From the NCBI GenBank assembly GCA_964615205.1, contig CAZTQA010000001.1, positions 510-64,509 on the forward strand: 64,000 nucleotides of DNA. The letters are read 5' to 3'. The notes under the pieces were generated by a model. The model saw only the letters and a program-made list of their open reading frames with translations. It searched no databases and had not been told where the DNA came from. Each line of letters opens with the position of its first letter. The first letter of the stretch is position 1. Source of the DNA: an uncultured Candidatus Saccharibacteria bacterium. GTDB taxonomy: Bacteria; Patescibacteriota; Minisyncoccia; Minisyncoccales; JAGMDC01. The translations under genes and the position numbers were made by a program. Shown here one piece after another: positions 1,911 through 47,433 of this stretch.

Positions 1911-1914
1911 AATT

Positions 1915-2496: not shown

Positions 2497-2500
2497 AGAT

Positions 2501-3031: not shown

Positions 3032-3059
3032 AAGAATACTTATGTTTTTATTGTTTTTG

Positions 3060-3569
3060 TCATTCTATTTCTACTAAGCCAGCTTTATTAATTCTTACAG
3101 TTTTAGTACCTATGTCTTCAATACCCAAAGTTATTTCTGCTTTATCTGCATCGTTAGTTATATAAATATTAGGATTGGGAGCCCTAAAAATGACAACTAT
3201 GTTTGCTTTGGGAGAAAGTTGAACTATTTTGACATTTGGTTCCAAAATTATATCTCTAATATGTTCAGTTCCTGCCTGATAATGACCACTATTATCAATA
3301 TCTGAAAAAATACTTATTATTCCTTCATTTTTATTACAATATATTCCATATCCTCCTTGAGGATAAAACTCTTCCCCCGGATCGCCTATTGTTTCTCCTG
3401 ATATGGCCATTTGTTCCACTCTCCTTATTTCCTGGGCTAAGTTATTAGCTGATCTTTCTAAAGCATAATTTTTTCCCATTGTTTTATAATTAGTCAAAGT
3501 TATGGCGGTAAGAATGGCAATAATAGCGATAACCACTAAAAGTTCTACTAATGTGAACCCTGTTTTCAT
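3060..3569 (-). CDS. Type IV pilin/pseudopilin, FimT/GspH-like
   Basis: MKTG/FTLVELLVVIAIIAILTAI is a canonical class III signal peptide. First gene of the minus-strand pilin operon. Confidence 0.65.
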   Translation of the reverse strand: MKTGFTLVELLVVIAIIAILTAITLTNYKTMGKNYALERSANNLAQEIRRVEQMAISGETIGDPGEEFYPQGGYGIYCNKNEGIISIFSDIDNSGHYQAGTEHIRDIILEPNVKIVQLSPKANIVVIFRAPNPNIYITNDADKAEITLGIEDIGTKTVRINKAGLVEIE

Positions 3570-3662: not shown

Positions 3663-4277
3663 ATGGAGCTAAAAACTTTAAAGATAAAAAAAGGTAAAAT
3701 TGATTTCAAAAATAAATACTTAAAATTATCAATAATTATTGTTGTTTTATGTTCTTTAGTTTTGATCTGGGTTTTGAACAGTCAAGATTTTTTTATTCCA
3801 GAACAGCCTGAAAGCAAGAAATTTTTTGAAAATTGCCAGGCATTATCCTCTTCTTGTCTAAACAATGAATGTCCTTATTATTTTCTCTGCGATGTAATTG
3901 CTTTCACTGATTGTAAGGTTTATGATTGCGATGCTTATTATGGGGTTGTAATCAAAGACAATAATGGCGAAACAATTACTAGAGAACAGTCAAAACCGGA
4001 CGAGAAAAAAATTAAGGAAAAGCTCAATAAGTGCAGGGGAACCGTTGAGGTTTTGGAGAAAGAATTTAAAGATGGAAAATTGAATGTCAATGTTAAAGTG
4101 AACACTGTCGGCGATTGCAAAATAGTATCTTTTATAGCTCAAAGCCAAAATGGACTCAAAACCGCCTTTTTTGAAGAGAAGGATGATTATTATAATTTAA
4201 TTTTTAATTCTCCCCCTTCTGAACCATTTAAAACCATAGCTGTAGGTGAAGGAGGAATAAGCATAAGAGAGAAATGA
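3663..4277 (+). CDS. Membrane-anchored Cys-rich hypothetical protein
   Basis: N-terminal hydrophobic helix (LSIIIVVLCSLVLIWVL). Its stop overlaps the start of the giant gene (ATGA at 4274), so the two are probably co-translated. Confidence 0.5.
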   Translation: MELKTLKIKKGKIDFKNKYLKLSIIIVVLCSLVLIWVLNSQDFFIPEQPESKKFFENCQALSSSCLNNECPYYFLCDVIAFTDCKVYDCDAYYGVVIKDNNGETITREQSKPDEKKIKEKLNKCRGTVEVLEKEFKDGKLNVNVKVNTVGDCKIVSFIAQSQNGLKTAFFEEKDDYYNLIFNSPPSEPFKTIAVGEGGISIREK

Positions 4278-12990: not shown

Positions 12991-14313
12991 ATGATTACTA
13001 AAAAGCAAAAACAAGTTTTAGATTTCATAACTTTATATCGCAAGAAACGAGGATATTCTCCGTCTCTTGAAGAAATACAAAAAAAATTCAGACTTGCTTC
13101 TGTTTCTACTGCTCATTTCCATGTTAAAAAATTACAAGAATTGGGACTTTTAGAAAAAAAACACAACAAACCAAGGTCAATTAATATCTACGAGAACGAA
13201 AAAATGGTTAATATTCCTCTCCTGGGCTTAATAGCTGCTGGGCAGCCGATTGAAGCAATACAAGATAAAGAAACAATTGCTTTTCCCCAAAACAAACTTC
13301 CTCGCTTTGGAGAATTTTATGCTTTACGAGTAGCAGGAAATAGTATGATAGAGGAGAACATCAAGGATGGTGATATTATTTTAGTAAAAGAACAACAAAC
13401 AGTTGAAAATGGACAAAAAGTTGTTGCGCTGATCGATAATTATAAAGCAACCTTAAAAACGTTTTATAAAGAAAGAGATAAAATTCGTTTACAACCAGCC
13501 AATAAAAATTATGAACCAATTATTATAAAGAGCGGTGAACGAGAGATTGTTATTCAAGGACTTGTTATTGATGTAATAAAAAACAATGAAGAATTGCAAG
13601 CAACAGAATTATTATCGCAAAAGGAAATAAAGAGATATAATAACCTACCACTAAATAAAGTTATCTGTGGAGATGCTATAGAAGAATTGAAAAAACTACC
13701 AAATAAATCTATTGATTTGATATTAACAGATCCTCCTTACGGATTAAATAAAAAGGGCATTAGTAATGATACTGATTTAAGCTTATTTTATTCGTCTTTG
13801 CCGGAAAGTTACCGAGTTTTAAAGGATAACTCTTTCTTTATAACCTTTTTTAGTACAAAATTTTTACCACAAATTTTCAGAAGTAATCCTTTTGAATATT
13901 TCTGGAATTTTGTTCTTTATTGTCCGAATGGAAGCGTCTCTTCCCCTATAGGATATACAAAATATATGTCTTGTATGGTCTTCAAAAAGGGTAATCCTAA
14001 GATGATAAAAAGAGGGAAAGATATTTTTGTTGATACTCCAGGTAGAATGGTGGAACCTGACGAAGGGTTTATTAATCATCCAACGCCAAAACCAAAAACC
14101 TTTATAAAAGATATTTTGTTAATGTTCTCTAGAAACGGAGATATCGTTTTAGATCCTTTTATAGGTAGCGGGAGTACAGCAATTGCTTGTAAGCAAATTG
14201 GAAGAAATTTCATTGGATTTGAGATTGATGTAAATTACTATAAATTGGCTAAAGAAAGATTAAAGAAAATTGAAGGAAAATCTAAGACCTATGACCTTAA
14301 ACTTAATTTTTAA
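12991..14313 (+). CDS. Fusion protein: full-length LexA-like repressor (wHTH + S24 autopeptidase) fused to a beta-class N6A/N4C DNA methyltransferase
   Basis: aa 1-200 are colinear with LexA: cleavage site LIAA83|G84QP, Ser118 in AGNSM, Lys156 in ATLKTF, end GLVIDVIKN. aa 225-440 are a methyltransferase: DPPY at aa 247-250, HPTPKP, LDPFIGSGST, FIGFEID. The motif order IV then I defines the beta class. Confidence 0.85.
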   Translation: MITKKQKQVLDFITLYRKKRGYSPSLEEIQKKFRLASVSTAHFHVKKLQELGLLEKKHNKPRSINIYENEKMVNIPLLGLIAAGQPIEAIQDKETIAFPQNKLPRFGEFYALRVAGNSMIEENIKDGDIILVKEQQTVENGQKVVALIDNYKATLKTFYKERDKIRLQPANKNYEPIIIKSGEREIVIQGLVIDVIKNNEELQATELLSQKEIKRYNNLPLNKVICGDAIEELKKLPNKSIDLILTDPPYGLNKKGISNDTDLSLFYSSLPESYRVLKDNSFFITFFSTKFLPQIFRSNPFEYFWNFVLYCPNGSVSSPIGYTKYMSCMVFKKGNPKMIKRGKDIFVDTPGRMVEPDEGFINHPTPKPKTFIKDILLMFSRNGDIVLDPFIGSGSTAIACKQIGRNFIGFEIDVNYYKLAKERLKKIEGKSKTYDLKLNF

Positions 14314-15190
14314 TAAGGTTCTTTAGAACTGTTTTCATATCCCAAGCATGCTCTTTTGAGGCAACGATAAAGCTTTCTGCAAGTCCTATCAGATCATCTT
14401 TACTAATTGGTAAAAAGATTACTTCATTACTTTTTGCTGTTCGTCCAATAATTGAACGGTTGTCTTTGTCAAAAAGATTGTTTGCTTTTGAACAGAAATA
14501 TATCATACTTTGATAACCAACTGCTTTTTGTTTGTGTTGTAAAATAATTTCAACAAGAGTATTGCTACTTATTCTATTCATAAATAAAGGATTTTTTTCT
14601 TCAAATAATTCAAACTTGCCCAAAATTTTTTTATGAGTCGTTGTTCTGATAATTTTATACTGTTTTTCAATATCTAATTCATTTTTATTATTAAAATCTA
14701 TCAATTGTTCAATTTCCTGTTTGTTTATTAATTTATCTTTTAATGCGATTTTGAACAAATCAGATAATTCATAACCGACATAAGTATTTCCATTTTTGTG
14801 CTCTTTTATAACTATTATTTCATTATTTCTTTTAAAAATTTCAAGTATTTCATTCTTAAAATCTTTTCTACTTTTGATGTTCGTTTCTAGAATAAATTTT
14901 TTAATATCGCTAAGGATGTTTATATTTTTATAATTTAAAGATAAATTTTCTAAAATGTTCTCGCGATCTTTTGGCGTTTTAGCTGTTCGATAGTTTTTCC
15001 AGATTGTATCAATCGGCAAGAAATAAGAAATTTGCCATTCAACATAATCATTTTCAGAAAATACATTTTTCTTTACAGAAATTGGTTCGCCAAAATTATC
15101 TTTCCTTCGTTTAACTCTAATTTTGCTAGTTGCACCAGTTATTGGGATAGAACAAATAATTTTACTATTTTTTATAAAAAGCATTGACAT
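14303..15190 (-). CDS. Hypothetical protein; candidate cognate restriction endonuclease
   Basis: 295-aa ORF convergent with the methyltransferase, 3' ends overlapping by 11 nt. Visibly very AT-rich. I could find no nuclease motif, so the call rests on context only. Confidence 0.35.
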   Translation of the reverse strand: MSMLFIKNSKIICSIPITGATSKIRVKRRKDNFGEPISVKKNVFSENDYVEWQISYFLPIDTIWKNYRTAKTPKDRENILENLSLNYKNINILSDIKKFILETNIKSRKDFKNEILEIFKRNNEIIVIKEHKNGNTYVGYELSDLFKIALKDKLINKQEIEQLIDFNNKNELDIEKQYKIIRTTTHKKILGKFELFEEKNPLFMNRISSNTLVEIILQHKQKAVGYQSMIYFCSKANNLFDKDNRSIIGRTAKSNEVIFLPISKDDLIGLAESFIVASKEHAWDMKTVLKNLIKN

Positions 15191-16867: not shown

Positions 16868-18643
16868 ATGAGGGTAGAACCCGGACAATTAAAAGCTTTT
16901 CTTATAGACGCCAATATAGTTACTGATGTCCAGTTTGAAAAGCTTTATATAAAAGCTAAAAAAGCCGGTAAAGAGATCGGCCAAGTTTTAATTTCCGAGG
17001 GATTAATCAGCGAAGAGGACTTAATTAAATTAAAAGCCTATATTTTAGGTGTTCCTTTTGTAGATCTAGAAAAGGAAACCATTACTCCGGAAATTTTAAA
17101 AATTATTCCTGAACCCATTGCCAGAACTCATAATATTGTAGCTTTCCGAAAAAAGGAAAATAATCTGGAAGTAGCTATGCTTGATCCCAATGATTTGCAG
17201 ACAATTGATTTCATCCGAAAAAAAGCAGGATTGAAAATTCTGCCCCGTCTTACTTCTCCTGCCAGCATTAAAAAAGTGCTTCAGCAGTACCAAAAAACTC
17301 TTAAAGCTGAATTCGGTGATATTATTTTAGACCAGGTAAAAGATCTTTCCAGACCGAAAATTGGGATAGAGATGAAATCGATCAAAGAGGAGAAAAAAGA
17401 AGAAAAGAAAGAGGATCTAAAGAAAACAGCTGAAGAGATGCCGGTAATCAGGATTGTAGACACTTTACTCAAACACGCTATTCTTCAGAGATCTTCTGAC
17501 ATTCATATCGAACCCACAGAAAAAGAAGTCATTGTCCGTTACCGCATTGATGGTATTTTGCGGGATGCTATGACTCTGCCCTTACAAGTCACTTCAGGAA
17601 TTGTGGCGCGAATTAAAGTTCTCTCTAATTTAAAATTAGACGAACATCGTCTTCCCCAAGACGGGCGTTTTAAGGTTGAAAGTGAGGATTACAAATATTC
17701 AGTCAGAGTGTCTATTCTTCCGGTTTTTAGCGGTGAGAAAATCGTTATGCGTTTGTTGGCAGAAACCTCTAAAAGTTTTAGTTTGGAGGAATTAGGTTTA
17801 CAGGGTGGGACTTTAGAAAATGTTCAAACAAATATTAGAAGGCCGGTGGGTATGATTTTAGTCACTGGTCCTACTGGTTCTGGAAAAACAACCACTCTCT
17901 ATTCAATTTTGGAAATTCTTAATACTCCTGAAGTGAATATATCCACCATTGAAGATCCCATTGAATATCAAATTCCCAGAATAAACCAAACTCAAGTTAT
18001 GCCAAAGATTGGTTTAACTTTTTCCAATGGGCTTCGTTCCCTGGTAAGACAGGATCCGGATATAATTATGGTGGGTGAAATTAGAGATAAGGAAACCGCT
18101 GGACTAGCAATTAATGCTGCTTTAACCGGGCACATGGTTTTGTCTACTCTGCATACCACTAATGCTGCCGGCGCCCTTCCTCGTTTAATAGATATGGAAG
18201 CAGAACCTTTTTTGATTGCTTCTACTCTTAATGTGATTATTGCCCAACGCTTGGTAAGATGTTTCTGCGACGACAAAAAACCTTATAAGCTAACTGATTT
18301 AGAGATGAAAAGCTTGTCAAGATACTGCGATTTGGATAGAATAACAGATATTTTAAGACAAGAAAAAGTAATTAAGAAAAATGAGAATATTAAAGATGTG
18401 CAGTTCTATAAACCAGTGCCTTCTAAAAACTGTCCGGACGGCTATCGAGGCAGAAAAGGAATTTATGAGGTTCTGCCAGTAAATGAAACAATTAAAGAAT
18501 TAATTATGAAAGGAGCTAATTCAAGCCAGATTCAGAATCAAGCCCAAAAAGAAGGTATGATAACTATGATTGAAGACGGCCTTATTAAAGCTGCCCAGGG
18601 AGTGACTAGTTTAGAAGAGGTTTTAAGAGTAATTAAAGAATAA
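16868..18643 (+). CDS. pilB: Type IV pilus assembly ATPase PilB (GspE family)
   Basis: T2SSE N-terminal domain, Walker A GPTGSGKTTTLYS, Asp box, Walker B IIMVGEIRD, His box TGHMVLSTLHT. Confidence 0.9.
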   Translation: MRVEPGQLKAFLIDANIVTDVQFEKLYIKAKKAGKEIGQVLISEGLISEEDLIKLKAYILGVPFVDLEKETITPEILKIIPEPIARTHNIVAFRKKENNLEVAMLDPNDLQTIDFIRKKAGLKILPRLTSPASIKKVLQQYQKTLKAEFGDIILDQVKDLSRPKIGIEMKSIKEEKKEEKKEDLKKTAEEMPVIRIVDTLLKHAILQRSSDIHIEPTEKEVIVRYRIDGILRDAMTLPLQVTSGIVARIKVLSNLKLDEHRLPQDGRFKVESEDYKYSVRVSILPVFSGEKIVMRLLAETSKSFSLEELGLQGGTLENVQTNIRRPVGMILVTGPTGSGKTTTLYSILEILNTPEVNISTIEDPIEYQIPRINQTQVMPKIGLTFSNGLRSLVRQDPDIIMVGEIRDKETAGLAINAALTGHMVLSTLHTTNAAGALPRLIDMEAEPFLIASTLNVIIAQRLVRCFCDDKKPYKLTDLEMKSLSRYCDLDRITDILRQEKVIKKNENIKDVQFYKPVPSKNCPDGYRGRKGIYEVLPVNETIKELIMKGANSSQIQNQAQKEGMITMIEDGLIKAAQGVTSLEEVLRVIKE

Positions 18644-18653
18644 AAAATAAATT

Positions 18654-19646
18654 ATGAAAAAAAGAATTTTAACAGGAGACAGACCTACAGGACCATTGCA
18701 TTTAGGGCATTATGTTGGTTCTTTGGAAAACCGGGTTAAACTTCAGGATGAATACGAATGCTTTTTTATTATCTCTGATTATGAATTTTTAACAGACCAC
18801 TTGAACCAAACTAAAGAATTAAGTAAAAATGTGGAAAATATAGTTTTAGATTATCTTTCAGTGGGAATTGATTCCCGAAAAGCAGTTATTTTTTTGGAAT
18901 CCAAGATTCCTCAGATTTCCGAGCTTAGTTTCCTTTTTTCTATGTTGGTAAGTTTGTCTCGGGTTCAGAGAAATCCTACTATTAAAGAAGAACTTAAAAG
19001 TCGAGGAATAAGTAAAGCCAGTTACGGTTTTATTGGCTGGCCTATTGCCCAAGCAGCTGATATCCTTTGCGTAAGAGCTAATTTGGTACCAGTGGGTGAA
19101 GATCAGCTTTCCCATATCGAGCAGACTCGGGAAATAGCCAGGGATTTTAACCGTATTTTTGGCAAGGTTTTTCCTATGCCTGAAGCTTTAGTAAGCCGGG
19201 TTCCTCGTTTACCGGGCTTAGATGGAAGAAAAATGTCTAAGAGCTTAGGCAATGCTATTTTTCTTTCTGATTCTTCTGAACAAGTAGAGGAGAAAGTAAA
19301 AAAGGCCATTACTGATCCTAAACGTATTCATAGCACAGACAAAGGTCATCCTGATGTCTGTAATATTTTTAAATATTATCAAGCATTTGCCAGAGATAGA
19401 GTTGACAAAATTGAAGAAAAATGTAAAAAGGGGGAAATTGGATGTACAGCTTGTAAAAAAGAGATAGCTCAAGTTATAAACGAGTTTTTAGAGCCCATTA
19501 GAAAAAAAAGAAGATTCTATCAGAAAAAGAAAACACTAGTTAAAGAAATTTTAGAAGCCGGTAATAGAAAGACTCAAAAAGAAGCTGCTGAAACCTTGAA
19601 AATAGTTAAACAAAAAATGCATCTTGATTATGAAAACCTTCTATAA
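18654..19646 (+). CDS. trpS: Tryptophanyl-tRNA synthetase
   Basis: 330 aa class I aaRS. HIGH-type TGPLHLGHYVG, KMSKS, GEDQ. Confidence 0.9.
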   Translation: MKKRILTGDRPTGPLHLGHYVGSLENRVKLQDEYECFFIISDYEFLTDHLNQTKELSKNVENIVLDYLSVGIDSRKAVIFLESKIPQISELSFLFSMLVSLSRVQRNPTIKEELKSRGISKASYGFIGWPIAQAADILCVRANLVPVGEDQLSHIEQTREIARDFNRIFGKVFPMPEALVSRVPRLPGLDGRKMSKSLGNAIFLSDSSEQVEEKVKKAITDPKRIHSTDKGHPDVCNIFKYYQAFARDRVDKIEEKCKKGEIGCTACKKEIAQVINEFLEPIRKKRRFYQKKKTLVKEILEAGNRKTQKEAAETLKIVKQKMHLDYENLL

Positions 19647-20709
19647 TTCAAAAAAAATTCTAAAGCTTTTTAATATTTTTGTTCCAGAAAAGCAAGAAGA
19701 TATTAATTCCTTTTCTGAAAAAGTAAATAAGCTTATTAATCCGGTTATCAAACAACTACTCACCTCTTATGTTGATAAAAAAAACAAAGAGGTTGTTTTT
19801 TACCAAATTGAAGTAGGAGGGAAAAGATTAAGGCCGGCCCTGGCTATGATTTGCTGCAAGATGCTGAGAGGCAAGATTAAAGATGTCATATATCCGGCTG
19901 CCGGCTTGGAAATCTTGCATAATTATTCTTTAATTATTGACGATATTATTGATAACAGCCAGAAAAGAAGAGGTGAGCCAACTTGTTGGGTGAAATTCGG
20001 TAGTTCTGTGAGCCAGTGTATCGGGGTTGACTATTCAGCAGCTATTTTTCAGTCAGCTAAAAATTCTAAAGACCCGACTAAAATTTCAGAAATTTTTTCT
20101 ACTACCTTAAAAGAAATAGTTGATGGTGAAATTATGGATATGCTTTTTGAGCAAAGAGGAAGAGAGAACGAGCCATATATTGTTAAAAATAGGTATAAAA
20201 AGATTAATGAAAAGGATTATCTGTATATGATAAACAAGAAAACCTCGGCTTTGTTTCGAAGTTGTTGCGAAATCGGGGGCATTTGCGCTGATGCTAATCA
20301 AAAACAGCTTGAAGCTTTAAGAGAATATGGCTTGAATATAGGTATTGCTTTTCAAGTTAAAGATGACATTTTGGATATTTTCGGCAAGGAAAGAAAATTC
20401 GGAAAGAAAATCGGAAAAGACATTATGGAGAGAAAAAGAGGGAATATAGTTGTTCTTTTGGCTTTGAAGCAGCTCAATTCCAGTGATAAAAACGAACTTT
20501 CCGAGATTTTGAAGAAAGATAGAATCAGTCGGAAAAATGTTAAAAAAGCAGTAGCCATAATTGAAAAAACTAATGCTAAAAACTTAGCTTTTCAATTCGG
20601 GGAAAAATATATTCAGAAAGCCAAAGATAACTTGGATTTGCTTCCCCATAATAAATGGAATCAAATTTTAAAACAGCTTACAGAATTCACCCTCACCCGC
20701 GAAAAATAA
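19624..20709 (+). CDS. Polyprenyl diphosphate synthase (GGPP/FPP synthase family)
   Basis: First Asp-rich motif LIIDDIIDNSQKRRG, second FQVKDDILD, GGKRLRP. Confidence 0.85.
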   Translation: MIMKTFYNSKKILKLFNIFVPEKQEDINSFSEKVNKLINPVIKQLLTSYVDKKNKEVVFYQIEVGGKRLRPALAMICCKMLRGKIKDVIYPAAGLEILHNYSLIIDDIIDNSQKRRGEPTCWVKFGSSVSQCIGVDYSAAIFQSAKNSKDPTKISEIFSTTLKEIVDGEIMDMLFEQRGRENEPYIVKNRYKKINEKDYLYMINKKTSALFRSCCEIGGICADANQKQLEALREYGLNIGIAFQVKDDILDIFGKERKFGKKIGKDIMERKRGNIVVLLALKQLNSSDKNELSEILKKDRISRKNVKKAVAIIEKTNAKNLAFQFGEKYIQKAKDNLDLLPHNKWNQILKQLTEFTLTREK

Positions 20710-20760
20710 AAGGAGCTAAGCTCCTTTTGGAATAACTCAAAATGATTTGAGTATTTTTTT
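20710..20760 (+). terminator. Two tandem hairpin terminators after the polyprenyl synthase gene
   Basis: AAGGAGC-TAA-GCTCCTT then TTGG (20710-20729). ACTCAAA-ATGA-TTTGAGT followed by ATTTTTTT (20735-20760). Confidence 0.6.
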
Positions 20761-20909
20761 CTAATGGGGTAGAATTAAACAATGGCGGAAAAAGACACCT
20801 CTTTGCTTTCTTATTATGGTTTTACCAAGGCAGACCAGAAAAAATACCCGGTCATCTCGGGTATAGTTTTAAAAAATAGACATTAATAAAGGAAGTTTGT
20901 AAAAAACAA

Positions 20910-22040
20910 ATGAATAGAATTTATCAAACTATTATTATCGGTGCAGGACCTGCAGGGTTGATAGCGGGTAGACATTTAAAAGATTCTTTAATTTTAGATC
21001 AAAAACAAGAAATTGGTAAACCGGTACAATGTGGAGAAGGAATTAGCAGAGATGCTCTTAAAATACATAATATAGAACCAGATTCTTCCTGGATTTCTTG
21101 TGACATTCATAGGGTTGAAAGAATAATGCCGAACGGTAAAAGAATAGGTAAATTTCATAAGGAAGCAATAGGATATATTCTAGATAGAACTGCTTTCGAA
21201 AAATTCTTAGCGAGTACTGTCAAGGCTGAGATTAAATTAAAAAGCAAAGTTGTTGATTTAAATAAAGAAAACAATATTTGGTGTGTTAAAACGCAAAATG
21301 GAGAAATATTTAAATCTAAATATATTATTGGAGCCGATGGACCAAATTCTATAGTACGAGAAAAGGTTTTTAAAGAGAGAATAAAGATCCTCCCAGCAGT
21401 TGAATATTTATTAGAATTAGAGAAAGAAATAAAAGTAGATACCTTGGAAATTTATTTAAATAATGAAAAATATCCTCAGGGATATGCTTGGATTTTTCCT
21501 AAATCAAGAAATACGGCTAATATAGGTATTGGTGGACAAGGGGATCTTTTAGAAAAATTTAGGGAATTTTTAGAAGAGGAGGTGAGAATTAAATATCAAA
21601 ATTATAAAATTCTAGAAAATAGAAGTGGAGTTGTTCCTTTTGCTAAACCCTCAACAATTATTAAAGATGGAGTATTATTAGTCGGTGATGCCGCTGGTTT
21701 TACAAATAGCGTTTTTAAGGCAGGAATAAGTAGAGCGATGTGGTCTGCAAGGATTTGCAGTCAACTTATTTTAGATAATGATATAAGTTCTCATAAGCAC
21801 AAAACAAGAGTAATTTTGTTTACCGGTTCTAAACTAGATAGAGCAGGAAGTATATTGTATGCTTTTAGCAATGAATCACTCAATGAATTAGGAGGTTTTT
21901 TAGAGAATAAGAATGCTTCTTATTATAAAAATATATTAGTAATAATGAAAATGTTATTTAGTCATTCTTTAAGAAAGGATATTTTGAAAATGTTTGAATT
22001 TATTTCAATCTGGAAAAAATACAAAAAATATAGTTGGTAA
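20910..22040 (+). CDS. Geranylgeranyl reductase family FAD-dependent oxidoreductase
   Basis: IIIGAGPAGLIAG dinucleotide fold, CGEGIS, IIGADGPNSIVR, GYAWIFPK...ANIGIGG. These are signatures of the archaeal/bacterial GGR family. Confidence 0.75.
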   Translation: MNRIYQTIIIGAGPAGLIAGRHLKDSLILDQKQEIGKPVQCGEGISRDALKIHNIEPDSSWISCDIHRVERIMPNGKRIGKFHKEAIGYILDRTAFEKFLASTVKAEIKLKSKVVDLNKENNIWCVKTQNGEIFKSKYIIGADGPNSIVREKVFKERIKILPAVEYLLELEKEIKVDTLEIYLNNEKYPQGYAWIFPKSRNTANIGIGGQGDLLEKFREFLEEEVRIKYQNYKILENRSGVVPFAKPSTIIKDGVLLVGDAAGFTNSVFKAGISRAMWSARICSQLILDNDISSHKHKTRVILFTGSKLDRAGSILYAFSNESLNELGGFLENKNASYYKNILVIMKMLFSHSLRKDILKMFEFISIWKKYKKYSW

Positions 22041-22912
22041 TAATTAAAATAATCATGAATTTTTCACAAGCCTTGAAATTAATCTTTAATGAATTTCTTT
22101 ACGGTGGACATTTAATCTCACTAGGAGCTGTTGGCATAGTTTTTTCGTCGGCTATTTTATTAGAAATAAAAATAGATTTGGATTTTTTGATAATTGTATA
22201 TTTATTTAGTTATAATTCTATTTTATATAATCGGTATAGAGAATTTAGAATTGATTATTTAACTAATCCAGAGAGGACTAAAAATTTAAGAAAATATTTT
22301 AAATATATTTCTTTAATTCTTTGTTTTTCCATACTGATTACTACAGGTATATTTATTTTTAATAATAAATTTTTGGCTTTATTCTTTTTGATTCTATTAT
22401 CTTTATTGACTTTCTTATATACAGAGTATTTTAAAAATATAACTAAAAATATATTTATTTTTAAGAATATTTATTTCTCTTTTGTCACGGGTTTATTATT
22501 AATATTATTGGTCCTTTATTATTCTTATCCAATTTTGAATTTCATTTTTTTTATAATTTTCATTTTTGTTTTTCTAAGAATGTTTATCAATACAGTGTTT
22601 CTTGATATCAAAGATGTTAAAGGTGATAATAAAATAAGGTTAAAGACAATTCCAATTTTATTTGGCGAAACCAAAACATTAAAAATTTTACAATTATTAA
22701 GTATGATATCAATATTACCAATACTTATTGGGGTTTATCTTGGTTTTTTACATCTTTTTTCTTTAGTTCTTATTTTCATAGTTCCTTATTCTTTTTACTA
22801 TTTTTTTGAGTCTAAAAAGAGAAAAAATTTTTATTTAGTAAATTATTTTTTAGCTGATTTAGAGTTTATTTTATGGCCAATTTTACTTTTATTGTCTAAA
22901 AATTTAATATGA
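22034..22912 (+). CDS. UbiA-superfamily membrane prenyltransferase
   Basis: About 8 hydrophobic helices. Second Asp-rich motif DIKDVKGD...LKTIPILFG. The first motif is the variant N-RYR-E-FRI-D (NxxxExxxD). Overlaps the GGR stop. Confidence 0.65.
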   Translation: MVIIKIIMNFSQALKLIFNEFLYGGHLISLGAVGIVFSSAILLEIKIDLDFLIIVYLFSYNSILYNRYREFRIDYLTNPERTKNLRKYFKYISLILCFSILITTGIFIFNNKFLALFFLILLSLLTFLYTEYFKNITKNIFIFKNIYFSFVTGLLLILLVLYYSYPILNFIFFIIFIFVFLRMFINTVFLDIKDVKGDNKIRLKTIPILFGETKTLKILQLLSMISILPILIGVYLGFLHLFSLVLIFIVPYSFYYFFESKKRKNFYLVNYFLADLEFILWPILLLLSKNLI

Positions 22913-30709: not shown

Positions 30710-32290
30710 TTAGCGACCTTGTTCTAAATATTTTATCATATATGTGTTTTTGAGTCCATATCCTAATTTGCGGTAGTATCCGCGAACTCCCACTCCGGAA
30801 ATAACAGCGATTTTTTTTACTTTGAATTCTTTTTGAGTAATTCTTTCAGCTTCTTTCATCAATTTTTTGCCCAATCCCTTGTGCTGGGGGGAAAGTGATT
30901 TTTGAGCTACAGCTGCCATTTGTCCAAAGGTATGCAATTCCCGAATCATGGCCGGGTAAAGGCCTTTTTCTTTCTGTATTCTTAGACGAAGCATGCTGTA
31001 AAGCTTAGTTCTTTGTTTATTCTCATAGCTTAGAAATATTTCTCTGCCTTGGGAGGCATTGTAATCTTGGCGGAAAAGATGAACTTTTTCTTGAGGATCA
31101 TATCTTTCTCTTATTTCTCGGCATCTTATGCAATGACAGGTTTTACCTCTTTGAGCCATTTTTTTCTGGATAACCTGTCTTATATTGGAAATCTTGCTTC
31201 CGGCTTCAATTTTTTCTGCTGGGATATCGCGAAAAAGTCTGGCCATACGCACCCAATAGGGAAGAATTTCTTTTATTTTTATCAAAAGTTCAATTAACTC
31301 TTTGTCAGTATGGGGCTGATATTCGCCTTGTTTCCAGAGTTGATAAAGTTTGGTGTTTTTACAAACCAAGCAAGGGTAAATTTTAAGCCAGTCTGGTTTA
31401 AAGTCCGGGTTAGCAAATATTTCTTTTGCCATTAGGAAATCTTTTTTCAAGTCAGAACCGGGCAGATTAGGCATAATTTGATACATTATTTTAAAACCAG
31501 CATTTTTTAAGAATTCAGTGGCTTGAATAGTTTTTTCAAGCGTATGTCCCCTTTGGCAAAACTTTAATATTTCGTCGTAAATAGTTTGTACCCCAAGCTC
31601 CACTAAAGTTACGCCTAATTTTCTTAAATAGAGAATTTCTTTTTTATCAATTAAATCCGGCCTGGTTTCAACAGAAATTCCTACTATCCTGTGTTTGGCT
31701 TTTTCGTTTTTCTTTTGTTCTTTTTCTAAATTAAGTTTGATTTTTGTTTTTTTGGAAAAATCATTTGCCGCTCGAAAGCATTCTTTTACAAACCATTCCT
31801 GGTATTTTTTAGGATAATTACTAAAGCTGGCTCCAATAATTCTTAATTCAATCTTATCAGTAGGATGGCCCTGGATTTCCAAACTTTTAATTCTATCTTT
31901 TACCTGAAGATAAGGGTTAAATTTGTTTCTCTTGGCTCTTTCTACTGCTGGTTCACCGGAAAGATAACTTTTTGGCAGACCTTTTTCCTCTGGACAGTAA
32001 ATACATTTTTCTGGGCAGGGATATGGCTTGGTTAAAACAGAAACAACTACTACGCCGGACAAGCTTCTTATTTTTCTTTTTCTTAGAATTTGTTCTAAAA
32101 GAGGATTCTTCTGGATAGTTTTGTTTTTAACTAATTTATGGTAAACTTGTATTAATTCAACATTGGAAGGAGAACTAATCTTATGCTTTTTAGCTGTTTC
32201 TCTTTTAATCTTAGCCAAACTTTCCAGAGTTTTTTCTCTGTTTGTCATAAACTTTTCGATTATCTCTTCATAAATATCCATCACTATCAT
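30710..32290 (-). CDS. elp3: Elp3-like radical SAM + GNAT acetyltransferase (tRNA U34 modification family)
   Basis: Radical SAM cluster motif CPEKCIYC, central Elp3 domain, C-terminal GNAT motif QHKGLGKKLMKEAE. Confidence 0.8.
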   Translation of the reverse strand: MIVMDIYEEIIEKFMTNREKTLESLAKIKRETAKKHKISSPSNVELIQVYHKLVKNKTIQKNPLLEQILRKRKIRSLSGVVVVSVLTKPYPCPEKCIYCPEEKGLPKSYLSGEPAVERAKRNKFNPYLQVKDRIKSLEIQGHPTDKIELRIIGASFSNYPKKYQEWFVKECFRAANDFSKKTKIKLNLEKEQKKNEKAKHRIVGISVETRPDLIDKKEILYLRKLGVTLVELGVQTIYDEILKFCQRGHTLEKTIQATEFLKNAGFKIMYQIMPNLPGSDLKKDFLMAKEIFANPDFKPDWLKIYPCLVCKNTKLYQLWKQGEYQPHTDKELIELLIKIKEILPYWVRMARLFRDIPAEKIEAGSKISNIRQVIQKKMAQRGKTCHCIRCREIRERYDPQEKVHLFRQDYNASQGREIFLSYENKQRTKLYSMLRLRIQKEKGLYPAMIRELHTFGQMAAVAQKSLSPQHKGLGKKLMKEAERITQKEFKVKKIAVISGVGVRGYYRKLGYGLKNTYMIKYLEQGR

Positions 32291-36845: not shown

Positions 36846-39041
36846 ATGAAGTTGTTTAATTTTTTAATTCTTATATTTTTATTATTTTTCTTTGGTTTTT
36901 TTTTAATTCCCGACCAGGTTGAAGCAGATACTAACGAACTTAAAGTATTTTTCTTTAAAAATACACCAATTTGTATAGTTGGTGATGCTTGTATCGTTGA
37001 TTATGGCTGTATAAATAGTACGAACAAATGTTGTACTATTGAGAACGGTATCAATATAACAGAAGCAAATATGAGGGCGGAAAACAGTGACTGGGATCAG
37101 CTTCCATTATTAGAGAAGCAAAAAAAGATACAATATAAATGCTGCATTTCTGTTAGGGATAAAGATGATAATGTTATAAAAGCATTTCAGAAAAATGATA
37201 ACGTGAAGGGACTTAAGCCAAGCGATAATAATGATTGCAGCAATATTAGTGGTGATAATAAGATTTTCCTAAATCCAGGTTTAACATATTCAGAGATATA
37301 TGGTAATTATCCAGAGGATGATACAGATGATATTGGGCTTAGAGACGAAGTTAAAAAATTTGTAACGCAAGTTAAAGACTGGACCAACGAAACTCTGAAT
37401 CTTGAGCCAGATTTTGTAGAGATAGAAATTTTAGAAACTTCAGAAAAAGTAGAATTATCTAGGCTTTGGGACGGTCTCTGGATGTCTCCAGACAATGCAG
37501 GATCTTTAATAAATCCTTACATAACAAAAGATACGGATTTTGTTATTGTTACTCAAAATATTTATGATAGTTCGCGTAATTTATTCTTTCCCCTTCCTGC
37601 CTGTGGTCTTAATTTTGGTGCTGATAATGGTGTTGGAGGAGCAAGTTATAGTTGGATACCTAAGAGTTTTGTTCATGGTCATAGTGTTTGGTTTGAATGT
37701 GCCAATAGCGGTACTTATATGCATGAGTGGTTGAATGCTATGGATTATGCTGTAGATCAGGTAACAGGTGTGCCTGATCAATATAAAAATAATTATCCAG
37801 ATTATTGTTATAATCCTAACTCTACTAATTGTAGTGCTTCCCAGACTCGTTTATGGTTTCCGTGCGCTTCCGCTCATTCTACTAAAGACCCGTGTTTTGA
37901 GGCTTGCGGACAGAACTGGAATAATTATTGTGCTTCTGTTGATGACTGTAATTCAGTATGGCATAGATTTATCTTAGAAAAACATTATGTTCCGACATAT
38001 GAGTATTCTTTAGACCCAAATTCTAGTTCTTATTTAGGACATTCTTTAATTGGCAACCATTGCAGAAATGGAATAAAAGATTGTGGCGAAACTGATATAG
38101 ATTGCGGAGGAAGTCATTGTTCTGTCTGTTCATCAGTCAAGTCAATTACCGTCACTTCTCCCAATGGCGGAGAAATCTGGATACATGGTCACACATATGA
38201 CATTACTTGGACAGCTACTGGAGTAGCTAATGTTACAATTAGTCTTCAAGGTATAAACACGAAGACAATTGCTACAAGCGTTTCAGCTTCTCTTGGAGAA
38301 TATTCTTGGACCGTACCAATAGATATTTCTTTATCAAGTGGCTATAAAATTCTAATTAAAGATACTAATAGTTTAATGAATGATCAAAGTGATAATTTCT
38401 TTACTATTATACCACCTATCTGTCTTGATAGTGACAGTGGCAAGAATTATTACTTAAAAGGAACCGTTACCGACTCTACAGGTAAAAGTTATCCTGATAT
38501 TTGTTCATCGGATACGTTAATCGAATATTATTGTGGAACTGATAATATTTACAGAAATGAGTTTTTTACCTGTCCTTACGGTTGCAATAATGGTGCTTGT
38601 AAGGAGGGCATTACCATCAATCTCTCCTTGGAAGCTAAACCAGTTGGAGGTAATCATCTAATCAATAAAGTATCCATCTTTAAATCGGGACAAACTACAG
38701 TTATCTGGAGTAAGACAAACAGTACTACAGATAATAATGATTTAATTTTAGATTTATCTAACTTTACTTACAATAGAAGTGATCTCTATAATATTAAGAC
38801 AGAAATAGACAATTATTTAGATAAAAAGGTAACCCACAACTTAGTTGATAACATTACTACTGCTGTCCAGATGAAGATAGGTGATTTAGACAATAATAAC
38901 ATTATCAGTTCAAGCGATTGGACTGCTATGGCAGATAATTGGCAGACTGGTGATTCAGATGCCGACTTCAACGAGGATGGCATTGTTAACACCATTGACT
39001 TCTCTTTTATGAATCGCAATTGGGGAGCTAGTGGTGACTAA
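36846..39041 (+). CDS. Secreted Cys-rich surface protein with C-terminal dockerin-like repeats
   Basis: Signal/anchor [21 protein letters not shown]. Cys-rich modules (CGETDIDCGGSHCSVC; CLDSDSGKNYY...CPYGCNNGAC). Kre9/KNH-like ITVTSPNGGEIW...YDITW. Dockerin-like GDLDNNNIISSSDW and ADFNEDGIVNTIDF. Confidence 0.7.
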   Translation: MKLFNFLILIFLLFFFGFFLIPDQVEADTNELKVFFFKNTPICIVGDACIVDYGCINSTNKCCTIENGINITEANMRAENSDWDQLPLLEKQKKIQYKCCISVRDKDDNVIKAFQKNDNVKGLKPSDNNDCSNISGDNKIFLNPGLTYSEIYGNYPEDDTDDIGLRDEVKKFVTQVKDWTNETLNLEPDFVEIEILETSEKVELSRLWDGLWMSPDNAGSLINPYITKDTDFVIVTQNIYDSSRNLFFPLPACGLNFGADNGVGGASYSWIPKSFVHGHSVWFECANSGTYMHEWLNAMDYAVDQVTGVPDQYKNNYPDYCYNPNSTNCSASQTRLWFPCASAHSTKDPCFEACGQNWNNYCASVDDCNSVWHRFILEKHYVPTYEYSLDPNSSSYLGHSLIGNHCRNGIKDCGETDIDCGGSHCSVCSSVKSITVTSPNGGEIWIHGHTYDITWTATGVANVTISLQGINTKTIATSVSASLGEYSWTVPIDISLSSGYKILIKDTNSLMNDQSDNFFTIIPPICLDSDSGKNYYLKGTVTDSTGKSYPDICSSDTLIEYYCGTDNIYRNEFFTCPYGCNNGACKEGITINLSLEAKPVGGNHLINKVSIFKSGQTTVIWSKTNSTTDNNDLILDLSNFTYNRSDLYNIKTEIDNYLDKKVTHNLVDNITTAVQMKIGDLDNNNIISSSDWTAMADNWQTGDSDADFNEDGIVNTIDFSFMNRNWGASGD

Positions 39042-39052
39042 TCATTTTAAAA

Positions 39053-40324
39053 ATGCAATTTATTGCTGACTTTCATTTGCATTCAAAATATTCTCGGGCT
39101 ACTTCCAGCCAAATGAACCTGGAAGGCATGGGCTATTGGGCAAAAATAAAGGGAATAAATATTTTAGGAACAGGAGACTTTACTCATCCAGAATGGTTTC
39201 AAGGCTTGAAACAAAATTTGGAACCAGCGGAGAACGGCCTATACAAACTGAAATCTAATAATAAAGCCAAGTTTATTTTAACTTCAGAAATAAGCTGTAT
39301 TTATTCTAAAAATGGAAAGGTGCGCAAGGTGCATATAGTAGTTTTAGCTCCCTCTCTTGAAGTAGTGGAGAAAATTAATACTCAGCTTGGCTGGATAGGA
39401 AATATAAAGTCAGACGGCAGGCCCATTTTGGGTTTGGATGCCAAAGAACTGGCAAAAATAGTTCTTAATATTTCCCAGGATTGCTTGATTATTCCAGCTC
39501 ATGTAATGACACCCTGGTTTGGTCTTTTCGGTTCCAAGTCCGGCTTTGATTCTTTGGAAGAATGTTTTGAAGAATATTCAAAACATATTTATGCTTTGGA
39601 AACAGGGCTTTCAGCTGATCCGGCCATGCTCTGGCGAATTCCTGATGCCAGGAAACTGACTTTAGTTTCTAACAGTGACGCCCACAGCCCAGCCAAATTA
39701 GGTAGGGAGGCCAATGTTTTTGAGGGAAACGGATTAAACTACAATTCTATTGTTGGTGCCATAAAAAATAGAGGTCTGTCCTCCAAGGGAGGACAGACCT
39801 CGGTTAAACTCGTTTACACTATTGAGTTTTTTCCTGAGGAAGGCAAATACCATTATGACGGCCACCGCAACTGCGATATCAGTTTATCTCCCTCAGAATC
39901 AAAAAAATATAATAATATTTGTCCGGTTTGCGGAAAACCCTTGACTATCGGCGTGTTGAATAGAGTAGAAAAATTAGCAGACAAAGCGCATGGGTTTAAA
40001 CCAGATAGTTTTATCCCTTATAAGAGCTTGGTTCCTTTAGAAGAAATAATTGCTGAAAGCTTAGGCCAGTCAACCGGGACCAAGCAAGTAGAAGCAGAGT
40101 ATCAAAAGCTTATTGATAAATTTGAGAATGAATTTAATATTTTAATTAATATTTCCCAACAAGACCTGGAATCCGCTAGTTTATCGGAGATTGCAGAGGG
40201 AATTATAAAGGTAAGAGAGGGCGATGTTGATGTTGAGCCGGGATATGACGGAGTTTTTGGCAAAGTAAGGATTTTTTCAAAGGCCGAAAAAAAAGAAATT
40301 ATTAAACAAAAAACATTATTTTAA
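39053..40324 (+). CDS. Endonuclease Q-like PHP-domain nuclease
   Basis: DFHLHSKYSRA, GTGDFTHP, DGRP, PAHVMTPW, ETGLSADP, SNSDAHSPAKLGREANVF and the Zn-finger CPVCGKPLTIGVLNRV are colinear with archaeal EndoQ. Confidence 0.75.
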   Translation: MQFIADFHLHSKYSRATSSQMNLEGMGYWAKIKGINILGTGDFTHPEWFQGLKQNLEPAENGLYKLKSNNKAKFILTSEISCIYSKNGKVRKVHIVVLAPSLEVVEKINTQLGWIGNIKSDGRPILGLDAKELAKIVLNISQDCLIIPAHVMTPWFGLFGSKSGFDSLEECFEEYSKHIYALETGLSADPAMLWRIPDARKLTLVSNSDAHSPAKLGREANVFEGNGLNYNSIVGAIKNRGLSSKGGQTSVKLVYTIEFFPEEGKYHYDGHRNCDISLSPSESKKYNNICPVCGKPLTIGVLNRVEKLADKAHGFKPDSFIPYKSLVPLEEIIAESLGQSTGTKQVEAEYQKLIDKFENEFNILINISQQDLESASLSEIAEGIIKVREGDVDVEPGYDGVFGKVRIFSKAEKKEIIKQKTLF

Positions 40325-40598: not shown

Positions 40599-40695
40599 TA
40601 AATTTTCAAATTAGGCGCTCAATCCAACTACTTGACAAGTATTCTTTTTTTGGTTAAGGTTTATATTACAAAAGCATAGGAGGGATAAAGAAAGA

Positions 40696-41355
40696 ATGGA
40701 AAGCAAGTTATTGACTGGACTAGGTATTTTGTGTTTTCTGGCAGGGATAGTTTTGGTATCAGCAAACATAGACACAGGGGAAAATGCAGTCGTAGTTGAT
40801 AGCAATACAGTTACAGCAGCCAGATTGACCTTGACAGAGATAGCACCTTTAAACATCAATATAACGCCGGGTACTAACAATACCTGGACAGTGAACGTCA
40901 CGAACACTGGAACGATGAAAGGTAATGTTACGATAGAGACAATTAAATTCCTTGGCTTAGAGAACGGCGTGCTGGATATAGAAAATAAGACAATGGGAGA
41001 CGAAGAAGGAAAGGATCTCGGCTGCGACCAGATTGAAGGGGACGGAGAATTGGACAACTTGGTAGAAGTTTTACTCAAGAACGGCGATACTATTGTTCTG
41101 CATTTGAAGGACGGAGAACTTTTCACCAACTCTTCTAATTGTACGCTGACGCCCGGAGAAACAAGGCAGTTGAATCTAACAGTGCTGTGGTCACCTTCCA
41201 AACCACCGCGGATAAGTGATCTGACTGCCCAAACAGACAGTTTTGAATTCGCTTTAGAAATAGAAATTGGGCAGATAGGAATTGCCAGAGGATTCTCTGA
41301 CTCAAAAATAGTGCCAGTAGAGATAATAGCTGAAACCTGGGAGGAAGAGACATGA
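40696..41355 (+). CDS. Secreted/anchored beta-rich protein, TasA/camelysin-like (tentative), rich in N-x-S/T sequons
   Basis: SD AGGAGGG. N-terminal hydrophobic segment LLTGLGILCFLAGIVLV. NTVTAARLTL...ITPGTNNTWTVNVTNTGTMKGNVTIE resembles TasA-family motifs. 8 N-x-S/T sequons. Confidence 0.45.
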   Translation: MESKLLTGLGILCFLAGIVLVSANIDTGENAVVVDSNTVTAARLTLTEIAPLNINITPGTNNTWTVNVTNTGTMKGNVTIETIKFLGLENGVLDIENKTMGDEEGKDLGCDQIEGDGELDNLVEVLLKNGDTIVLHLKDGELFTNSSNCTLTPGETRQLNLTVLWSPSKPPRISDLTAQTDSFEFALEIEIGQIGIARGFSDSKIVPVEIIAETWEEET

Positions 41356-42092
41356 ATCTGACTAGACGAGCCTTATTCGTTGTCCTGATGATTATACTCG
41401 TATGGGTTTTTGTGGGTTCGCTAATGTGGTATGTTTCTAAATCCATAGAGCGACCTGAACCCTCACCAATGCCGACGCCGTATCAAACACTCTATCCGAC
41501 TTTTAGACCACCAGTTCCAACTTTCGTCCCAACTCCAAATCCGAGCCCTACTTCGACTCCAAGTTCAATTCCAACGCCTACCCCAATAGTTAGACGCAGC
41601 GGAGGAGGTGGAGGAGGAGGCGGTGGTGGCGGAACACCGTCAACGCCAACACCATCACCAACACCAGCGCCAATAGCGATAGGATTATGGTTGTGTGGGG
41701 CAGATGGCAGTAATTGCACCCAGAGAACAGAAGGTCTTATAAAGGCAGTCAATATAGCGCCGGGAGACAGCGGAGAAATTACTAGGACACTGAAAAACAA
41801 TGGCAATGCTACTGCAGTATACTTCGAGGTGTTTAATTTAACTTCAGAAGGCTCAGGACGGCTAGAGAATCATTTTTATCTGGAGATTGATTTTGATAAT
41901 CGGACAACCGTAGCTAATATTTCAGCATTCCAGAACAATTCAACCGAAATTGGAGAAATCCAGAATAACCAAACACTGCCTATAACCATGACTTGGGAGT
42001 TCAACGCAACGCAAATTGTCAGCCAAGAAGAGATAAATAAACTGCAAGGCACCGGCATAAACTTCGCATTCAGATACTTACCAAAACAATAA
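41352..42092 (+). CDS. Membrane-anchored protein with Pro/Thr linker, Gly11 run and TasA-like C-terminal domain, rich in N-x-S/T sequons
   Basis: TM helix ALFVVLMIILVWVFVGSLMWYV, PT-rich linker, RRSGGGGGGGGGGGTPSTPTPSPTP, then VNIAPGDSGEITRTLKNNGNATAVYFEV. Confidence 0.45.
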   Translation: MNLTRRALFVVLMIILVWVFVGSLMWYVSKSIERPEPSPMPTPYQTLYPTFRPPVPTFVPTPNPSPTSTPSSIPTPTPIVRRSGGGGGGGGGGGTPSTPTPSPTPAPIAIGLWLCGADGSNCTQRTEGLIKAVNIAPGDSGEITRTLKNNGNATAVYFEVFNLTSEGSGRLENHFYLEIDFDNRTTVANISAFQNNSTEIGEIQNNQTLPITMTWEFNATQIVSQEEINKLQGTGINFAFRYLPKQ

Positions 42093-42102
42093 TAAAAATT
42101 AA

Positions 42103-42136
42103 AAGAGGATTTATTTTTTACTCCTCTTATTTTTTA
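42103..42136 (+). terminator. Hairpin terminator after the island
   Basis: AAGAGGA-12 nt loop-TCCTCTT followed by ATTTTTTATTT. Confidence 0.55.
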
Positions 42137-42182
42137 TTTATTTTTCAAATTAATTGAGATATAATAAGATATAATTATCTAT

Positions 42183-47067: not shown

Positions 47068-47433
47068 ATGAATAAAGAATTAGCGCTTTCGCTGAGGGTT
47101 ATGTCTAGTTTATTGCTTTGGCCAGGGGCTCTCTGGATAATGATTTCTGTGGGATTACTGCTATTTCTGTGTTACGATTTCAGCGGAACAATGCTTGAAG
47201 ACATGTATCTTTCCTACGGAATGAATCTGCACCTATTTATAGTAGCAATAGCAATGGTGATTATTGCAACTATAGGAGATTTTTACAGTCATATCAAGAC
47301 ATATCTAATGTACCGTAGAGATAGTGAAGCTGCTTATTTAACGGGAAATGCACGTTTGTGCTTGAGAAGTAACGGTAGAATATGCTATAAGGTTGGAAGG
47401 AGAGCCAAGTCAAGCAAAATGGTACTAAAGTAA
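47068..47433 (+). CDS. Membrane protein (121 aa) with basic C-terminal tail, cassette D
   Basis: SD AGGAG. Three hydrophobic segments, then an RRDSEAAYLTGNARLCLRSNGRICYKVGRRAKSSK tail. Hairpin GGTACTAA...TTAGTACC plus T-run overlaps the stop (about 47421-47457). Confidence 0.5.
   Translation: MNKELALSLRVMSSLLLWPGALWIMISVGLLLFLCYDFSGTMLEDMYLSYGMNLHLFIVAIAMVIIATIGDFYSHIKTYLMYRRDSEAAYLTGNARLCLRSNGRICYKVGRRAKSSKMVLK

Follow-up and report, generated by a model that had tools for sequence, protein, structure and literature searches.

By profile comparison, two overlapping genes in a 64-kb stretch of DNA from a bacterium of the Candidate Phyla Radiation (CPR) related to Nealsonbacteria (64,000 nucleotides of contig CAZTQA010000001.1, hereafter the window) encode divergent members of the TasA/camelysin superfamily (PF12389), and on balance we interpret the pair as a lineage-specific surface-fibre module that is tethered by its second protein and N-glycosylated. 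The genes, g1 (40696-41355, + strand, 219 aa) and g2 (41352-42092, + strand, 246 aa; both from the open reading frame (ORF) list), overlap in the ATGA junction noted in a preliminary description of this DNA, the end of g1 and the start of g2 coinciding at 41352-41355. TasA-type fibres are a main scaffold of the biofilms of Gram-positive bacteria, and archaea possess glycosylated counterparts of them; CPR bacteria have tiny genomes and live attached to host cells.

Homology and architecture of the two proteins

When 1.84 billion representative proteins were scanned exhaustively with g1 in HMMER, 9 matches were obtained, the best three being P0012 (44% identity, expectation value (E) 1.4e-29), P0013 (46% identity, E 1e-21) and P0018. 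The homologue searches with g1 and g2 that were prefiltered by K-mers returned the queries themselves only, and the profile version added few members. In a metagenome scan, the g1 alignment recovered nothing and the g2 alignment recovered the contig of L079 only (related loci are designated here by L numbers), and scans of viral contigs gave no match and no sign of a phage-borne module. The gathering score of PF12389 (Peptidase_M73; 22.5 bits) is exceeded by three homologues of g1 (P0013, P0016 and P0019 with 32, 40 and 44 bits, respectively), and the g1 orthologue of L009 scores 18.4 bits, which is below this cut-off. The small proteins next in similarity belong to PF12389 and lie on contigs with a G+C content (GC) of about 0.70 (P0016 and P0019; the contigs are short).

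The relationship becomes clear when families are compared as profiles. In hhalign, five g1-type proteins of CPR bacteria aligned with six bona fide PF12389 proteins over 181 columns (99.1%, E 5e-19), the g2 family (five sequences) aligned with the same PF12389 set over its C-terminal 110 columns (95.7%, E 1e-8), and the g2 family aligned with the g1 family (87.7%, E 3.4e-6); a BLASTP comparison of g1 with g2 was not significant, so that the paralogy is visible with profiles only. Searched against the whole PDB, the g1 family profile matched only TasA of Bacillus subtilis (8aur and 5of1, E 2e-4), and the match covers the N-terminal segment of g1 and, weakly, the C-terminal Q motif. The earlier characterization of both proteins as TasA/camelysin-like is thus borne out by hhalign and by the PDB matches restricted to TasA; the claim that both are secreted or surface-exposed is supported as well. 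With phmmer, no PDB match was found for g1 and poly-Gly linker noise only for g2; the matches of the g2 family profile to the PDB (e.g., Mei2) were weak and were set aside as chance.

In the preliminary description g1 was taken for an N-terminally anchored protein, but in the sequence and the family alignment its N-terminus looks like a cleavable Sec signal peptide and not like a permanent anchor, with probable cleavage by signal peptidase I after V-S-A and before N24. In the orthologues of g1, too, the conserved (F/W)DS motif is preceded by small-x-small sites. A lipoprotein signal (GILC) was considered and rejected, as it does not fit the lipobox. The g1 family profile aligns the segment that follows the signal peptide (Table 1) with DIKSKDATFASGTLDL of TasA. 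The core of g1 is beta-rich, with the motifs PG-x-N-x-T, G-D-G-E-L-D-N and A-Q-x-D-S...Q, and its C-terminal extension ends in TWEEET, a feature that among the homologues is common only to P0012 (…TWEEEK) in the alignments. The AlphaFold model of g1 (from a 6-sequence alignment) is all-beta and of low confidence (pLDDT, the per-residue confidence score, 49.8; pTM, the predicted TM-score, 0.51).

Judged from its primary structure, g2 is a type II membrane-anchored TasA-like paralogue. R5 and R6 lie on the cytoplasmic side, and therefore its topology is read as N-in, C-out. Within the Pro/Thr-rich stalk, a run of eleven Gly (41601-41633, residues 84-94) is written in mixed GGN codons and is identical across three independent metagenome contigs spanning g2, and 5/5 members of the family keep the linker together with six or more consecutive Gly; the run might be a hinge, a processing site or a cross-linking site. 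The family is invariant for a Cys pair and a sequon (N-x-S/T, x not P) within the segment G-L-x-(I/L)-C...G-x-N-C-T, and the TasA-like domain ends in N-x-L-Q-G...Q. Orthologues were found at L009:8473-9198 (36% identity, E 2e-12) and L079:2114-2890 (34%, E 1e-17), and also in L080 and L082. The AlphaFold model of g2 (single sequence, pLDDT 50.4) is unusable for judging the fold.

TasA polymerises by a donor strand that completes the sheet of the next subunit, polymerisation being initiated by TapA, which donates its own N-terminus (PMC9674648, PMC10151520); the donor strand of TasA comprises residues 28-38 (PMC9674648). The N-terminal segment of g1 is equivalent in sequence to this donor-strand region, and it is from this that we infer filament assembly. 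In the mechanism that we propose, g1 would be exported via Sec and its signal peptide removed, after which it would polymerise by donor-strand exchange like TasA and the archaeal protein AbpA, so that each subunit has its beta-sandwich completed by the N-terminal strand of the preceding one. The second protein would keep a TasA-like domain and a donor-strand-like GLW(L/I)C segment, with its N-terminus fixed by the signal-anchor helix and its domain held off the membrane on a Pro/Thr and poly-Gly stalk of about 80 residues, which might be long enough to cross the envelope. Placed in this way, g2 could be the cell-proximal base or nucleator in the role of TapA, where it would supply the first donor strand and serve as the tether of the fibre. 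The fibre itself would be N-glycosylated at a relaxed sequon that requires no acidic residue at position -2, and glycans would coat it; the dense N-x-T sequons of both proteins are held by selection across orthologues.

Some relatives encode an additional small secreted protein between the g1-like and g2-like genes (L009:8058-8516, 152 aa, also L082:1333-1791; and L078:902-1246). In this protein a TasA-type signal peptide and a donor-strand motif, (F/W)DS..IE(D/N)N, are followed only by an acidic tail rich in N-x-T, with no beta domain; the module of the window lacks it. This donor-strand-only protein may act as a nucleator or cap in the manner of TapA, and in our mechanism it would be an additional one.

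It would also be conceivable that both proteins are TasA-like and build no fibres, g1 being a soluble or cell-wall coat or a camelysin-like factor and g2 an independent stalked adhesin for host attachment. This we hold to be unlikely, since the donor-strand region is the best-conserved part that g1 has in common with TasA, the tight coupling of the two genes by an ATGA overlap is kept in four lineages, and some relatives possess the donor-strand-only accessory protein, even if polymerisation is a prediction, the structure models are of low confidence, type IV pilins and further large secreted proteins of adhesin-like character are encoded in the window, and CPR bacteria are, according to literature abstracts, commonly episymbionts.

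No SipW-type signal peptidase had been noticed in the window, and this stands: the only domain of a related kind is the LexA-type S24 domain, and no S26/sipW-type peptidase was found in the 64 kb or in the loci L009, L075, L079 and L082. In contrast to the SipW-less module of CPR bacteria, in locus L086 (GC 0.69) the gene of the classical homologue P0016 adjoins a gene for a SipW-like peptidase with an SGSMEP motif (the two genes lie at 58-855, - strand, and 1068-1661, + strand), and L085 carries two tandem TasA-like genes.

Sequon excess and predicted N-glycosylation

The expected number of sequons was obtained from 1000 shuffles per protein. The g1 protein contains 8 sequons, exactly those listed in the preliminary description, versus 2.7 expected (z 3.6, p 0.004), and g2 contains 10 versus 3.0 expected (z 4.7, p <0.001); the high density reported for g2 was thus correct, and its count of about 9 becomes 10 with the inclusion of N2 on the cytoplasmic side, the other 9 being extracytoplasmic. 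None of the other 50 ORFs of the window is enriched, including those of the secreted proteins of 2215 aa and 731 aa. When nine module proteins from four lineages were taken together, N-x-S/T was observed 72 times versus about 23 expected, the reverse motif S/T-x-N 23 times versus about 22 expected, and N-S/T and N-x-x-S/T were at expectation. In g1 and g2 the density exceeds what composition predicts by a factor of three to four, and the excess is directional; it is borne by N-x-T, with N-x-S near expectation.

All orthologues from sister CPR genomes show the excess, and 19 of the 21 most sequon-enriched ORFs (among 1654 ORFs of 85 loci) encode module proteins; the classical PF12389 homologues have no excess. 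Each family possesses one invariant sequon (PG-x-N-x-T in g1, G-x-N-C-T in g2), and 16 of the 24 sequon columns of the g1 family are lineage-specific. Sequon density is maintained while positions turn over. This pattern is predicted by selection for N-glycan acceptor sites and is difficult to explain by composition or fold, and we conclude from it that g1 and g2 are probably N-glycosylated. The extended sequon of PglB, D/E-x-N-x-S/T, is not the rule here: because only 13 of the 77 sequons of the module families carry D/E at position -2, the enzyme, if there is any glycosylation, uses a relaxed sequon.

Another explanation of the excess would be structural (Asn/Thr capping or turns in a beta-sandwich), or a different modification directed at Asn or Thr might be responsible. 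Such causes would account for the lack of a transferase in the 64-kb window and of any description of N-glycosylation in Patescibacteria in our literature search, but they would have to produce an excess that has a direction and is confined to the i/i+2 spacing (the control motifs given above being at expectation), and that is not seen in homologous PF12389 proteins of the same fold family. Moreover, they would have to act in the non-homologous, low-complexity tails of the small proteins of L009 and L078, which have no beta-sandwich and carry 11 sequons versus 3.1 expected (L009:8058-8516) and 6 versus 2.0 (L078:902-1246). We regard an origin of the excess other than glycosylation as rather improbable.

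Tentatively, and with less assurance than for the module itself, we suggest that a clade of CPR bacteria related to Nealsonbacteria possesses an N-glycosylation system with a relaxed N-x-T sequon like that of archaea and eukaryotes. The main client of this system would be a TasA-like surface fibre, hitherto unrecognized, which is tethered by a membrane-anchored TasA paralogue.

Several results weigh against a glycosylated TasA-type fibre. Neither g1 nor g2 gave a Pfam match even at E<=1, so that both remain outside the gathering criterion of PF12389, and no model of NCBIfam, in which a model of SipW-cognate signal peptides is the expected detector of such signal peptides, matched either protein. 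Foldseek found no PDB entry at E<=0.001 with the predicted models, and for the low-confidence g1 model AbpA (7ueg) ranked only 6th (E 0.019, TM 0.34); because the AlphaFold models are poor and the Foldseek matches not significant, the predicted fold stays unconfirmed. The g2 protein could equally be a stand-alone adhesin. No gene for an oligosaccharyltransferase, N-glycosyltransferase, other glycosyltransferase or signal peptidase was found in the 64-kb window or in about 3 kb beyond its end (housekeeping genes only), and in the literature on CPR/Patescibacteria we found no report of an oligosaccharyltransferase or of sequons in these bacteria.

As regards lipid carriers, the window encodes at 19624-22912 (+ strand) a polyprenyl synthetase, a geranylgeranyl reductase and a UbiA-family prenyltransferase (GC 0.203, the minimum of the window) side by side, followed by a 7TM histidine kinase. 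Their product could be a reduced polyprenyl compound, which would be unusual for a bacterium and might concern the lipid carriers of glycosylation; a link to g1 and g2 is a candidate only.

Chromosomal position, composition and neighbourhood

The gene content of the window is bacterial (NusA, ClpP, L20, L35, IF3, SmpB and many aminoacyl-tRNA synthetases), and its PolX is 66-69% identical to PolX of metagenome-assembled genomes of Parcubacteria/Nealsonbacteria, which places the organism in the CPR/Patescibacteria. The local gene order is amino-acid permease, 731-aa secreted protein, MJ0043-like PHP, 90-aa protein (p90), g1, g2 and PolX, followed by L20/L35/IF3 on the opposite strand. The g1-g2 pair occurs, adjacent or overlapping, at the same chromosomal position in three groups of related loci. 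In L075 (the source of P0012) the order is permease, PHP (77% identical), p92, RTC (on the other strand), g1-like and an overlapping g2-like gene; in L079-81 (P0018) it is p94, RTC (on the other strand), g1-like, a g2-like gene for 258 aa, MFS and PolX; and in L009/L082 (Nealsonbacteria CSMAG_2411) it is DUF72-like, g1-like (29% identity, E 8e-11), the 152-aa protein, g2-like, MFS and PolX. In L006 the order DUF72-like, MFS, PolX leaves no room for the module, and in the remaining relatives tblastn gave no match to g1 or g2 near PolX. Because its position is fixed in the loci of relatives that have it and it is missing from others, the module is an old feature of the clade that has been patchily retained.

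The preliminary description had called the region a GC-richer island, and in sliding windows its GC is indeed 0.443 versus a window mean of 0.345, which places g1-g2 at rank 1 among 1400-bp windows (standard deviation 0.032, about +3 standard deviations). GC peaks at 0.505 in 41400-41799, coinciding with the DNA that codes for the Pro/Thr/Gly linker of g2, and part of the signal is a matter of amino-acid composition, since GC at second codon positions (GC2) of g2 is 0.51. At third codon positions (GC3) the values are 0.432 (g1) and 0.368 (g2) versus 0.289 +/- 0.048 for the 52 ORFs of the window. Synonymous usage, for which a check had been suggested, is atypical in both genes (mean log probability of a codon given its amino acid -1.26 in g1 and -1.28 in g2 versus -0.97 +/- 0.086 for the same ORFs; z about -3.5), which rank 2nd and 3rd of the 52 in this respect; the codons favoured are ATA, CTG, ACA/ACG, CCA and TCA. 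High-expression codon bias was considered as the source of the raised GC3 and rejected in view of these preferences and of the nearby ribosomal-protein genes, which are no outliers. The long antisense ORFs reported earlier are present (40611-41201, 41135-41446 and 41492-41806) and, because the sense frames have conserved homologues, are taken as by-products of composition, i.e., as spurious.

These features had been read as marks of horizontal acquisition, possibly from archaea, and a recent genomic island of archaeal origin, in which the sequons would be the legacy of an N-glycosylated archaeal surface protein, has some points in its favour: no segment of the window is richer in GC than the module, whose codon usage is atypical; several relatives lack it (among them L006, in which the flanking DUF72-like and MFS genes remain); and relaxed N-x-T sequons are typical of archaea, in which TasA homologues are patchily distributed (PMC9245690). 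However, the deviation is accompanied by an orthologous position and by the same deviation in relatives, and by no near-homologue from a foreign clade. All close homologues belong to sister CPR genomes, i.e., to the same bacterial clade, and occupy the same position between PHP and polX (L075, L079-81, L009/L082); the distribution that had been named as speaking against transfer is therefore the one found. No identifiably archaeal relative was present among the 9 HMMER matches from the 1.84 billion representatives, in the K-mer searches or in the metagenome scans. Raised GC and atypical codons recur in the orthologous modules, and a deviation in every copy is a conserved property of the module and not the mark of a recent arrival; being common to orthologues that are 29-46% identical, it is old and maintained. 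Finally, sequon positions that turn over at a kept density point to selection inside the CPR and not to a decaying relic. We consider an archaeal island most improbable and retain the reading of an old, clade-specific module.

Within the pair and its immediate surroundings, the features in Table 1 were delimited. No sigma-70 promoter was called by a consensus scan of the 97-bp spacer before g1. The hairpin between g2 and polX is weak (fold of -7.8 kcal/mol, z only -1.4), and a terminator scan called no terminator there.

Table 1. Features of the g1-g2 gene pair and its flanks (positions in the window)
Feature	Coordinates	Strand	Residues	Basis or remark
Shine-Dalgarno-like sequence AGGAGGGA	40678..40685	+		10 nt 5' of the g1 ATG; sequence read directly
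g1 putative signal peptide MESKLLTGLGILCFLAGIVLVSA	40696..40764	+	1-23	Sequence
g1 N-terminal segment NIDTGENAVVVDSNTVTAARLTL	40765..40833	+		Equivalent by profile alignment to the TasA donor strand and the next strand
g1 C-terminal extension IGIARGFSDSKIVPVEIIAETWEEET	41275..41352	+	194-219	26 residues, beyond the terminal Q of the family
g2 predicted transmembrane anchor	41358..41444	+	3-31	AlphaFold helix, pLDDT 88-98; hydrophobic stretch
g2 Pro/Thr-rich stalk	41445..41681	+	32-110	Predicted disordered (AlphaFold)
g2 ectodomain	41682..42089	+	111-246	GLWLC...NCT segment, then TasA-like beta domain
Terminator-like hairpin AAGAGGA / TCCTCTT	42103..42146	+		Between g2 and polX; 12-nt loop, then T-rich tract

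The conserved left flank of the slot that holds the module is the PHP gene (39053-40324, + strand), which is of the MJ0043 type (TIGR00375), and an ELP3-like radical-SAM/acetyltransferase protein is encoded at 30710-32290 (- strand). The ELP3-like and MJ0043-type PHP (TIGR00375) families are mostly archaeal. Between the permease and PHP genes, which adjoin in L006, L009 and L075, the window has the gene (36846-39041, + strand) for the 731-aa secreted protein, which is rich in Cys and combines an Ig-like Kre9/KNH domain with a dockerin-like C-terminus. The neighbourhood of the module has here a further variable slot for a surface protein, and the sequons of the 731-aa protein are at expectation.

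The 64-kb window is rich in surface-structure genes, which are found at 1500-3569 (- strand), 4274-10921 (+ strand) and 16868-18643 (+ strand) and include four type IV pilin-like genes (N-terminal FTL(V/L)E motifs recognized by eye), a gene for a 2215-aa secreted FG-GAP/beta-propeller protein and one for a T2SSE/PilB-type ATPase. Elsewhere, the gene at 12991-14313 (+ strand) encodes a 440-aa fusion of a LexA DNA-binding domain, a Peptidase_S24 autoprotease and an N6/N4 DNA methylase, and a gene for an R.Pab1-type restriction endonuclease (14303-15190, - strand; GC 0.257) is convergent with it; together, 12991-15190 looks like a restriction-modification system in which the methylase is coupled to a LexA-like repressor. 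An ORF at 47068-47433 (+ strand), which encodes 121 aa with two hydrophobic segments and has no Pfam family on record, deviates more in codon usage than any other ORF of the window (-1.30), to a degree similar to g1 and g2.

Comparison with known fibre and glycosylation systems

That PF12389 occurs in Patescibacteria is already known (PMC9245690). What g1 and g2 add is a subfamily missed by standard profiles, a two-component design in which a stalked TasA paralogue appears to replace TapA and no SipW seems to be needed, and an excess of N-x-T that is statistically clean and evolutionarily maintained. If our interpretation is true, N-glycoproteins would be indicated for the first time in Patescibacteria, and a TasA-type fibre shielded by glycans for the first time in bacteria. 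N-linked glycosylation would reach the CPR if the sequons are used, and the glycan-coated fibre would be a candidate structure for attachment or immune evasion.

Among known systems, the module is comparable to TasA/TapA/SipW of B. subtilis in that g1 and the ectodomain of g2 are homologous to the TasA family, the likeness comprising the N-terminal donor-strand region, the PG...N-G motif and the C-terminal N-x-x-Q...Q motif. As in tapA-sipW-tasA, a gene for the major subunit stands next to a gene for a second, cell-proximal protein, if the role that we propose for g2 is correct. The CPR module differs in having no SipW in the window or in the four related loci, and whereas TapA is of the Ig-fold type, the accessory protein of the CPR module is instead a paralogue of TasA that has a signal-anchor and a PT/Gly stalk. 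Furthermore, the classical TasA family has no sequon excess and matches PF12389 directly, whereas g1 and g2 are sequon-dense and too divergent for such a match.

For the sequons, two bacterial systems offer themselves for comparison. HMW1 of Haemophilus influenzae is a surface adhesin that is modified at many plain N-x-S/T sites by the cytoplasmic N-glycosyltransferase HMW1C. It resembles the CPR module in its many plain sequons with no need for an acidic residue at -2, and differs in its fold and in its two-partner secretion, and no enzyme of the GT41 type was seen in the window. PglB of Campylobacter jejuni is an example of bacterial en bloc glycosylation of Asn in secreted proteins (PMC4894442). 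Unlike the presumed enzyme of the CPR clade, it requires D/E at -2 (present at 13/77 sites in the module), and the window contains no homologue of it.

AbpA/AbpB of the archaeon Pyrobaculum calidifontis (7ueg) is comparable in several respects at once. There is no detectable sequence kinship of AbpA to g1 and g2 closer than that of bacterial PF12389 proteins, AbpB is a multi-domain TapA-like protein unlike the membrane-anchored paralogue g2, and the host of the CPR module is a bacterium. However, AbpA is a TasA-like jelly-roll protein that is N-glycosylated at three N-x-S/T sites, and its processing is left to the generic signal peptidase in place of a dedicated SipW, as may also be the case in the CPR module; a downstream accessory gene accompanies its gene (PMC9245690).

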